Part shown: piece by piece, positions 3,034-3,130 of the stretch
Layout of the letters: each line of letters begins with the position of its first letter
Numbering within the stretch: position 1 is the stretch's first letter
Origin: Escherichia coli
GTDB taxonomy: Bacteria; Pseudomonadota; Gammaproteobacteria; Enterobacterales; Enterobacteriaceae
Assembly (NCBI RefSeq): GCF_044324785.1
Contig: NZ_CP172132.1
Length of the DNA stretch: 4,394 nucleotides
Reading direction: 5' to 3' (one strand)
Program-made: the position numbers and the translations under genes
The notes under the pieces: generated by a model
Database searches by the model: none
The model's input: only the letters and a program-made list of their open reading frames with translations
Told to the model about the DNA's origin: nothing

Positions 3034-3130
3034 ACAAAGATCCCGTTCAAATGTGGTGATGCTTTAATGTGCCCCACAAATAAGAAATGTGGAATATTTT
3101 TTTTTATATCCTCACATTTCTGTGAATAAC
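3034..3130 (-). promoter_or_regulatory. rep promoter/operator region with inverted repeat around a T9 tract
   Basis: GAAATGTG (3084-3091) and its reverse complement CACATTTC (3113-3120) flank a T9 run (3097-3105); a further direct copy AAATGTGG lies at 3049-3056. The arms resemble an iteron half (CCTCAC versus CCTCCAC), as in Rep autorepression operators. The -35/-10 hexamers could not be placed confidently. Confidence 0.4.

Follow-up and report, generated by a model that had tools for sequence, protein, structure and literature searches.

Inverted iteron-like half-sites in a putative promoter-operator region of a pIGWZ12-type Rep_3 replicon

The window, by which we mean the entire stretch of 4,394 nucleotides of Escherichia coli DNA that was analysed (contig NZ_CP172132.1 of assembly GCF_044324785.1), contains a single substantial open reading frame, the rep gene, whose position is given together with those of the other features in Table 1. 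The original prediction had placed a palindrome within a Rep_3 replicon, and the gene to the left of this palindrome does indeed code for a Rep_3 initiator, as judged from its Rep3_N and Rep3_C domains. Residues 8-222 of the Rep protein align with the F-plasmid RepE structures 2z9o, a dimer-operator complex (E = 8.6e-14), and 1rep, and its WH1 domain is homologous to the pPS10 RepA structure 1hkq. Read towards rep, the origin presents in succession DnaA boxes, A+T-rich repeats, an IHF site, four iterons, a further DnaA box, inverted repeats and finally the rep ATG. The A+T-rich repeats are likely to serve as the DNA-unwinding region, and the far side of the iterons, with its IHF site, repeats and DnaA boxes, is probably the unwinding side of the origin. 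No IHF site was found within the operator region itself, the sole perfect match nearby being the one beyond the iterons. At the other end of the rep gene, the right arm of a 21-nt inverted repeat overlaps the stop codon (2341-2343), while the left arm is found some 80 nt downstream.

Judged by sequence similarity, the replicon is of the pIGWZ12 type, a Rep_3 replicon of MOBQ41 plasmids. Its rep-origin segment is 96.7-97% identical to that of about 100 small plasmids from Escherichia, Salmonella and Shigella, pIGWZ12 included; pIGWZ12 itself (NC_010885.1; MOB-suite rep_cluster_1778) matches with 96.7% identity over 1080 nt and possesses a Rep protein that is 99% identical. Over the segment 3022-3218, which takes in the palindrome and the four iterons, pIGWZ12 and the window do not differ in sequence, and the 87 nt from 3057 to 3143, which are 100% identical to pIGWZ12, recur unchanged in 73 of 101 PLSDB records. 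The pIGWZ12 iterons have been reported as incompatibility determinants (PMC6856555). As to membership of the MOBQ41 plasmids, a MOBQ4 relaxase gene and mobC were sought beside the replicon and are absent, as is any long open reading frame other than rep. pIGWZ12 does carry a mobC and mobQ module, unlike the window; the similarity between the two stops at about position 3553, and the replicon alone is common to both. A full-length match to the window was present neither in PLSDB nor among complete E. coli genomes. Outside the replicon the window is a mosaic, in which 558-3553 shares 91% identity with plasmids of 5.3 kb, among them pMTY9803_Col2, and we take the segment 3480-3560 to resemble ColE1-type sequence. 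More than half of the window (1-2340 and 3554-4394) holds open reading frames of at most 73 aa, except in its G+C-rich part at 3660-4320. No open reading frame spans the MITE-like element listed in Table 1, which is overlapped only by short, mechanically called frames of 58-66 aa.

Table 1. Positions of the features discussed in the text, in window coordinates.
Feature	Position	Strand	Description
MITE-like element	1197..1509		313 bp; 51-nt terminal inverted repeats (1197-1247, 1459-1509), 92% complementary
21-nt inverted repeat	2238..2258 / 2325..2345		around the rep 3' end; 90% complementary; AAAATCGATTTTAGA core
rep gene	2341..3033	-	230-aa Rep_3 initiator with WH1 and WH2 domains; Pfam Rep3_N 8.4e-39, Rep3_C 2e-19
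O1	3049..3056	-	minus strand reads CCACATTT, an inverted copy of the iteron 3' end; 16 nt upstream of the rep ATG
M	3074..3081	+	iteron-end-like, direct orientation, CCACAAAT; forms an imperfect inverted repeat with O1
O2	3083..3092	-	left arm of the palindrome; minus strand reads CCACATTTCT, an inverted iteron 3' end
T9 run	3097..3105		within the A+T spacer of 21 nt that separates O2 from R
R	3112..3121	+	right arm of the palindrome, TCACATTTCT; direct orientation, iteron-end-like
Consensus DnaA box	3121..3129	-	TTATTCACA; 0 mismatches; conserved in all groups
Four iterons	3131..3216	+	21-23 bp; A-CCTTAAAT then TCCTCCAC[C/A]TWW; units start at 3131, 3152, 3175 and 3196
IHF consensus	3224..3236	-	perfect match AATCAACATGTTA; beyond the iterons
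A+T-rich repeats	3259..3306	+	with GATC, AAAACAAGATCT...; GC 0.20
Second consensus DnaA box	3316..3324	-	TTTTCCACA; consensus match
DnaA box	3412..3420		1 mismatch
STAXI RNA motif	4098..4271	+	Rfam RF01728; 78.9 bits (gathering score 40.5); two tandem units of ~61 nt, 4099-4155 and 4161-4216

The palindrome lies in the 87 nt that separate the rep ATG from the DnaA box and the iterons, a placement shared by the rep operators of the F plasmid and of pSC101. Its strings were found where the original prediction had put them, with the 8-mer arms GAAATGTG at 3084-3091 and CACATTTC at 3113-3120 flanking the T9 run; the perfect inverted repeat extends one base further on each side than claimed, so that it comprises 9 bp (AGAAATGTG at 3083-3091 and CACATTTCT at 3113-3121) with 21 nt between the arms. 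The 8-mer GAAATGTG is present at two places only in the window, these being the two arms, with an expectation of 0.17. By itself the palindrome is only modestly unusual: 2.3% of dinucleotide shuffles of 3034-3130 (local P 0.023) also gave a perfect inverted repeat whose arms measure 9 bp or more and whose loop is 3-40 nt, and the window has eight more perfect inverted repeats with arms of this size. The link of this region to the iterons is stronger evidence than its symmetry.

This link concerns the 3' end of the iteron, CCAC[C/A]TWW, to which the sites in the palindrome correspond. The motif CCACMTWW occurs six times in the window, with 1.12 occurrences expected, and six were reached in none of 200 shuffles. 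All six lie inside 3049-3216 and consist of the four iteron ends and two inverted AAATGTGG sites, located at 3049-3056 and 3085-3092. A relaxed form of the motif adds two sites in direct orientation, CCACAAAT at 3074-3081 and, in the right arm, TCACATTT at 3112-3119. Hence, the region holds an array of four iteron-end-like sites, O1, M, O2 and R, whose orientation alternates between inverted and direct. O1-M and O2-R make up two similar units of about 35 bp, each an imperfect inverted repeat, with gaps of 17 and 21 nt and, by our own arithmetic, distances of 21 bp (O1-M) and 23 bp (O2-R) between the half-site cores. The reported palindrome corresponds to O2-R and spans 39 bp. In the flank of O2, positions 3087-3100 match the inverted iteron at 11 of 14 positions. 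The minus-strand sequence of O1, CCACATTT, agrees with the iteron ends CCACCTTT and CCACATAT at seven of eight positions, and the iteron similarity within group A, to which the window belongs, is short (7/8) and statistically modest.

Relatives of the replicon fall into four specificity groups, whose Rep proteins are 84-91% identical and whose iterons differ in their 3' halves: TCCTCCAC in group A (the window and pIGWZ12), CATATTGCC in group B, CTCCTCACC in group C and GTTCACC in group D, the latter represented by one metagenome contig (L063). The 5' half of the iteron, CCTTAAAT, is common to groups A-C and reads CCCCGAAAT in the single group D contig. This contig came from a metagenome scan with a three-iteron pattern, which mostly retrieved unrelated tandem repeats and about eight contigs of the family. 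In the alignment columns of O1 and O2, each group has its own iteron half in inverted copy (AAAGGCAA in group B and GGTGAG in group C). The O1 homologues, AAAGGTAA or TAAGGCAA in group B and GAGGTGAG in group C, are inverted ends of the own iterons, and O2 of the group B relative L002 is a perfect inverted iteron, AAAGGCAATATGATTTAA. M is represented by TATCACCTTT in group C, ATTCCTTTA in group B and GTTCACC in group D. Positions relative to the ATG are conserved as well: the M homologues lie 40-41 nt away, with L003 as an exception (46 nt), O2 lies at 52-53 nt and the DnaA box at 88-89 nt, and in the group C relative L003 the sites are shifted by 5-7 nt. The geometry is not the same in all groups, O2 in L004 being a tight palindrome itself. 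In numerical terms, the operator region and the own iterons have 9-14 exact 6-mers in common in groups B and C, with about 1-1.5 expected and none of 2000 shuffles attaining these values; in the window the count is 3 with 0.4 expected, a value reached in 53 of 2000 shuffles. The matrix of 6-mer sharing is clean for groups B and C only, since mosaic iteron arrays blur it. The anatomy of the region, its relationship to the iterons and its covariation across the specificity groups are matters of direct observation.

Among the four sites, R is the least conserved. It has the same orientation as the iterons, abuts the conserved DnaA box, and shows little resemblance to an iteron end in groups B and C. 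The L015 lineage, which is viable, has GCGCATTT at this site; the palindrome is broken there, and the left arm carries no compensating change. The group D homologue of R, TTCACCATTT, does match the group D iteron.

On the protein side, variation across the groups peaks at residues 164-192 in the WH2 domain of Rep, where 66% of the alignment columns vary vs 14-25% elsewhere. These residues align with residues ~186-214 of RepE, which we take to be the WH2 helix-turn-helix. The WH2 domain would be the one that reads both the 3' half of the iteron and the operator half-sites. A second, short hotspot is found at residues 36-46, where 55% of the columns vary; these residues constitute a short WH1 loop that carries a 3-aa indel between groups, and this hotspot might covary with specificity too.

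Comparison with characterized iteron plasmids provides a framework for this arrangement. RepA of pPS10 represses as a dimer at an inverted-repeat operator and binds as a monomer to the iterons (PMC2367726, PMC4857107), and RepE follows the same paradigm of dimeric repressor and monomeric iteron binder (PMC5785507, PMC13028717). RepE monomers have been argued to contribute to autorepression as well (PMC13028717), and the step in which dimers alone repress is consequently not secure. In an F-type plasmid the repE operator reads AGTGTGACAA-N9-TTGTCACACT, ends 15 nt before the ATG and is located, as here, between the iterons and the start of rep. Its arms share the 8 bp TGTGACAA with four iterons, while the sites of the window match the iteron at seven of eight positions. 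RepE is homologous to the Rep protein of the window, and the WH1-ward side of each half-site of its operator faces inward. The F operator consists of one inverted repeat, whose 10-bp arms are 9 nt apart, whereas the window has two imperfect repeats with the wider gaps given above; the cores of the F operator are about 18 bp apart, a distance similar to, but smaller than, the 21-23 bp in the window.

In pSC101, whose RepA protein has remote sequence similarity to the Rep protein of the window, two successive repeat elements, IR-1 and IR-2, follow downstream of the iterons just as in the window, and promoter-like hexamers are embedded in the repeats. IR-2, the element nearest to the ATG, has inverted iteron-like half-sites (GGTATAG and CTAGACC) with cores about 20 bp apart vs 21-23 bp in the window; it possesses 17-nt arms and a 13-nt gap, in comparison with the gap of 21 nt in O2-R, and ends 1 nt before the ATG. 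No DnaA box is situated between the iterons and the inverted repeats of pSC101, unlike in the window. In F, pSC101 and the window alike, each half-site points inward with the side from which the remainder of the iteron would extend. pPS10 has four iterons, and a 39-bp fragment spans its operator (PMC2367726, PMC4857107); O2-R also covers 39 bp. The likeness to the pPS10 operator is one of principle only, with a homologous WH1 domain (1hkq) in the initiator.

The position of the rep promoter is less clear-cut. A consensus promoter scan of 2900-3450 gave no sigma-70-like promoter above threshold, and our own weight-matrix scan yielded two conflicting placements, with weak candidates in the window. 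In placement (a), the -35 hexamer falls into O2 and the -10 hexamer between M and O1; in group B this placement is strong and in group C moderate, but in the window it is weak (TCCACA-16-CACATT). On its rep strand, L002 has a single promoter-like site, TTGCCT-17-TATATT, and O2 contains the -35 hexamer of that site. In placement (b), the -35 hexamer is the TTCACA sequence inside the DnaA box at 3121-3129 and the -10 hexamer lies at the end of the A run, where the window offers a weak AAAAAT after a 19-nt spacer and L005 a TATAAT after a spacer of the same length. Either way, O2 would overlap a core promoter element or the start region.

Collectively, these data lend themselves to a reading, to which we assign a probability of roughly 70%, of 3049-3121 as the promoter-operator region of rep in a pIGWZ12-type Rep_3 iteron replicon, with sites that resemble the 3' half of the iteron and that would serve for a putative autorepression by Rep. 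The region fits the paradigm of RepE, pSC101 RepA and pPS10 RepA, in which the initiator represses its own promoter at inverted iteron-like half-sites. Rep binding, its dimeric form, the repression and the position of the promoter are those parts of the operator model that we infer. The WH2 domain would read the 3' half of the iteron, and Rep, as it accumulates, would place two WH2 domains, most likely as a dimer, onto a pair of inward-facing half-sites whose cores are about two helical turns apart. This occupancy would block RNA polymerase at the rep promoter and thereby keep the level of the initiator low, while Rep monomers would use the four complete iterons, allowing the origin to fire. 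The T9 run would act as a fixed-length, bendable spacer between O2 and R. The autoregulatory operator of the original prediction is in this sense upheld in part: the location between the rep ATG and the iterons, the likeness to the iteron 3' end, the covariation with the iterons of each group and the layout reminiscent of F and pSC101 all speak for it. The palindrome as a stand-alone operator is not upheld; it is instead the distal half of the four-site array, and R is the least secure element.

An alternative interpretation assigns the region a role in origin function through a host factor instead of autoregulation. The left arm and the box at 3121-3129 would then be DnaA boxes that flank an A+T tract for the loading of DnaA or for local melting. 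Several features of the window agree with this: the left arm, TGTGGAATA or TATTCCACA at 3088-3096, fits the consensus TTWTNCACA at eight of nine positions, the box at 3121-3129 fits it perfectly, and the GC content across 3080-3119 is 0.20. However, the position of the left arm reads GGCAATATG, GGTGAGCAA and GGTGCAATC in groups B, C and D, and hence follows the iterons of each group and not the DnaA consensus; moreover, a better candidate for unwinding is present beyond the iterons, where repeats with GATC occur together with an IHF site and another two DnaA boxes. We regard this interpretation as unlikely, and the left arm was rejected as a DnaA box in the role of main explanation, since its 8/9 match is confined to group A and groups B, C and D have kept no DnaA box at this position. 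For the box at 3121-3129, roles in DnaA binding and in the operator are not mutually exclusive. Comparably improbable is the idea that the 9-bp symmetry is a by-product of chance, so that O1 and O2 may be real Rep sites, the right arm just degenerate sequence that flanks the DnaA box, and the palindrome no functional unit. The local shuffle P of 0.023 and the eight other perfect inverted repeats in the window are compatible with it, as are the uncompensated mutation of the right arm in the L015 lineage and its weak likeness to the iterons in groups B and C. Yet group D independently has arms, AATTGGTG and CACCATTT, that are complementary at seven of eight positions and surround a T9 run of their own at the same place, with a right arm that matches the group D iteron, and the 87-nt region is identical in 73 of the 101 plasmids.

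Much less probable still is the formation of a hairpin, cruciform or terminator by the inverted repeat in DNA or RNA. A stem of 9-10 bp could form, but the folding energy of -6.5 kcal/mol corresponds to z = -1.64, with 16 of 200 shuffles folding as well; the loop would measure 21 nt and would contain the T run, which in consequence does not follow the stem; and across the groups the arms track the iteron sequence, base pairing not being preserved. A scan of the palindrome region found no terminator-like site, and an intrinsic terminator or stable hairpin was rejected on these grounds. An equally slim chance is left for the suggestion, part of the original prediction, that the T9 run is a slipped-strand contingency site which alters promoter spacing and switches rep expression or copy number. 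It draws on the candidate promoter with TTCACA, a 19-nt spacer and AAAAAT, whose -10 hexamer forms the end of the A9 run on the rep strand and whose spacer would be brought towards 17 nt by a shorter run. Among about 100 PLSDB plasmids, however, no length variant was seen. In addition to the identical records, every other full-length match listed spans exactly 87 nt, for which reason the differences in this region are substitutions, and neither a T8 nor a T10 version of the 87-nt region has an exact full-length match in PLSDB. The T8 run of L015 also arises by substitution at constant total length, with GA+T8 in place of AT+T8. A phase-variable homopolymer (contingency locus) is therefore not supported, the tract being monomorphic in length among the close relatives listed. 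Group D (L063) and the group C relative L003 likewise have a T9 run at this place, and this recurrence, together with its invariant length, indicates a constraint on the length and composition of the spacer. The T9 run is best read from these comparisons as a fixed-length spacer rather than a slipping switch.

Returning to the putative promoter-operator, the region would then be an ordinary control element of a known replicon type. For this window the finding matters little: it supplies an annotation for the rep control region of a small plasmid replicon that is common in enterobacteria, and it does away with the suggested phase-variable switch. Its comparative by-product is more useful. Matched sets of WH2 segment, iteron 3' half and operator half-site could serve to predict incompatibility groups among pIGWZ12-like plasmids, and could help to engineer orthogonal iteron replicons. 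With odds that we place slightly short of even, the pIGWZ12 family may represent a natural series of specificity swaps, in which a WH2 segment of about 30 residues, the 3' halves of the iterons and the operator half-sites have changed together in at least four groups, while the 5' half of the iteron and the rest of the origin have stayed unchanged in groups A-C. If true, this would offer a readable WH2-to-DNA recognition code, would make the palindrome the group A version of a co-evolving operator, and would explain how sibling plasmids can live side by side, given that some contigs hold a pair of rep genes from different groups.

Iteron arrays within one plasmid can be mosaic, as in the relatives L004 (955-974), L008 (77-96) and L005 (981-1000); one example is a single TTCC(C/T)CCACC iteron among CATATTGCC iterons. 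Such arrays suggest either recombination between sibling replicons or relaxed recognition. Three metagenome contigs, L063, L129 and L041, carry two rep genes each from different specificity groups; these contigs may be cointegrates, or else coexisting sibling plasmids that were assembled together. The proteins encoded by the pair in L063 are 99% and 84% identical to the Rep protein of the window.
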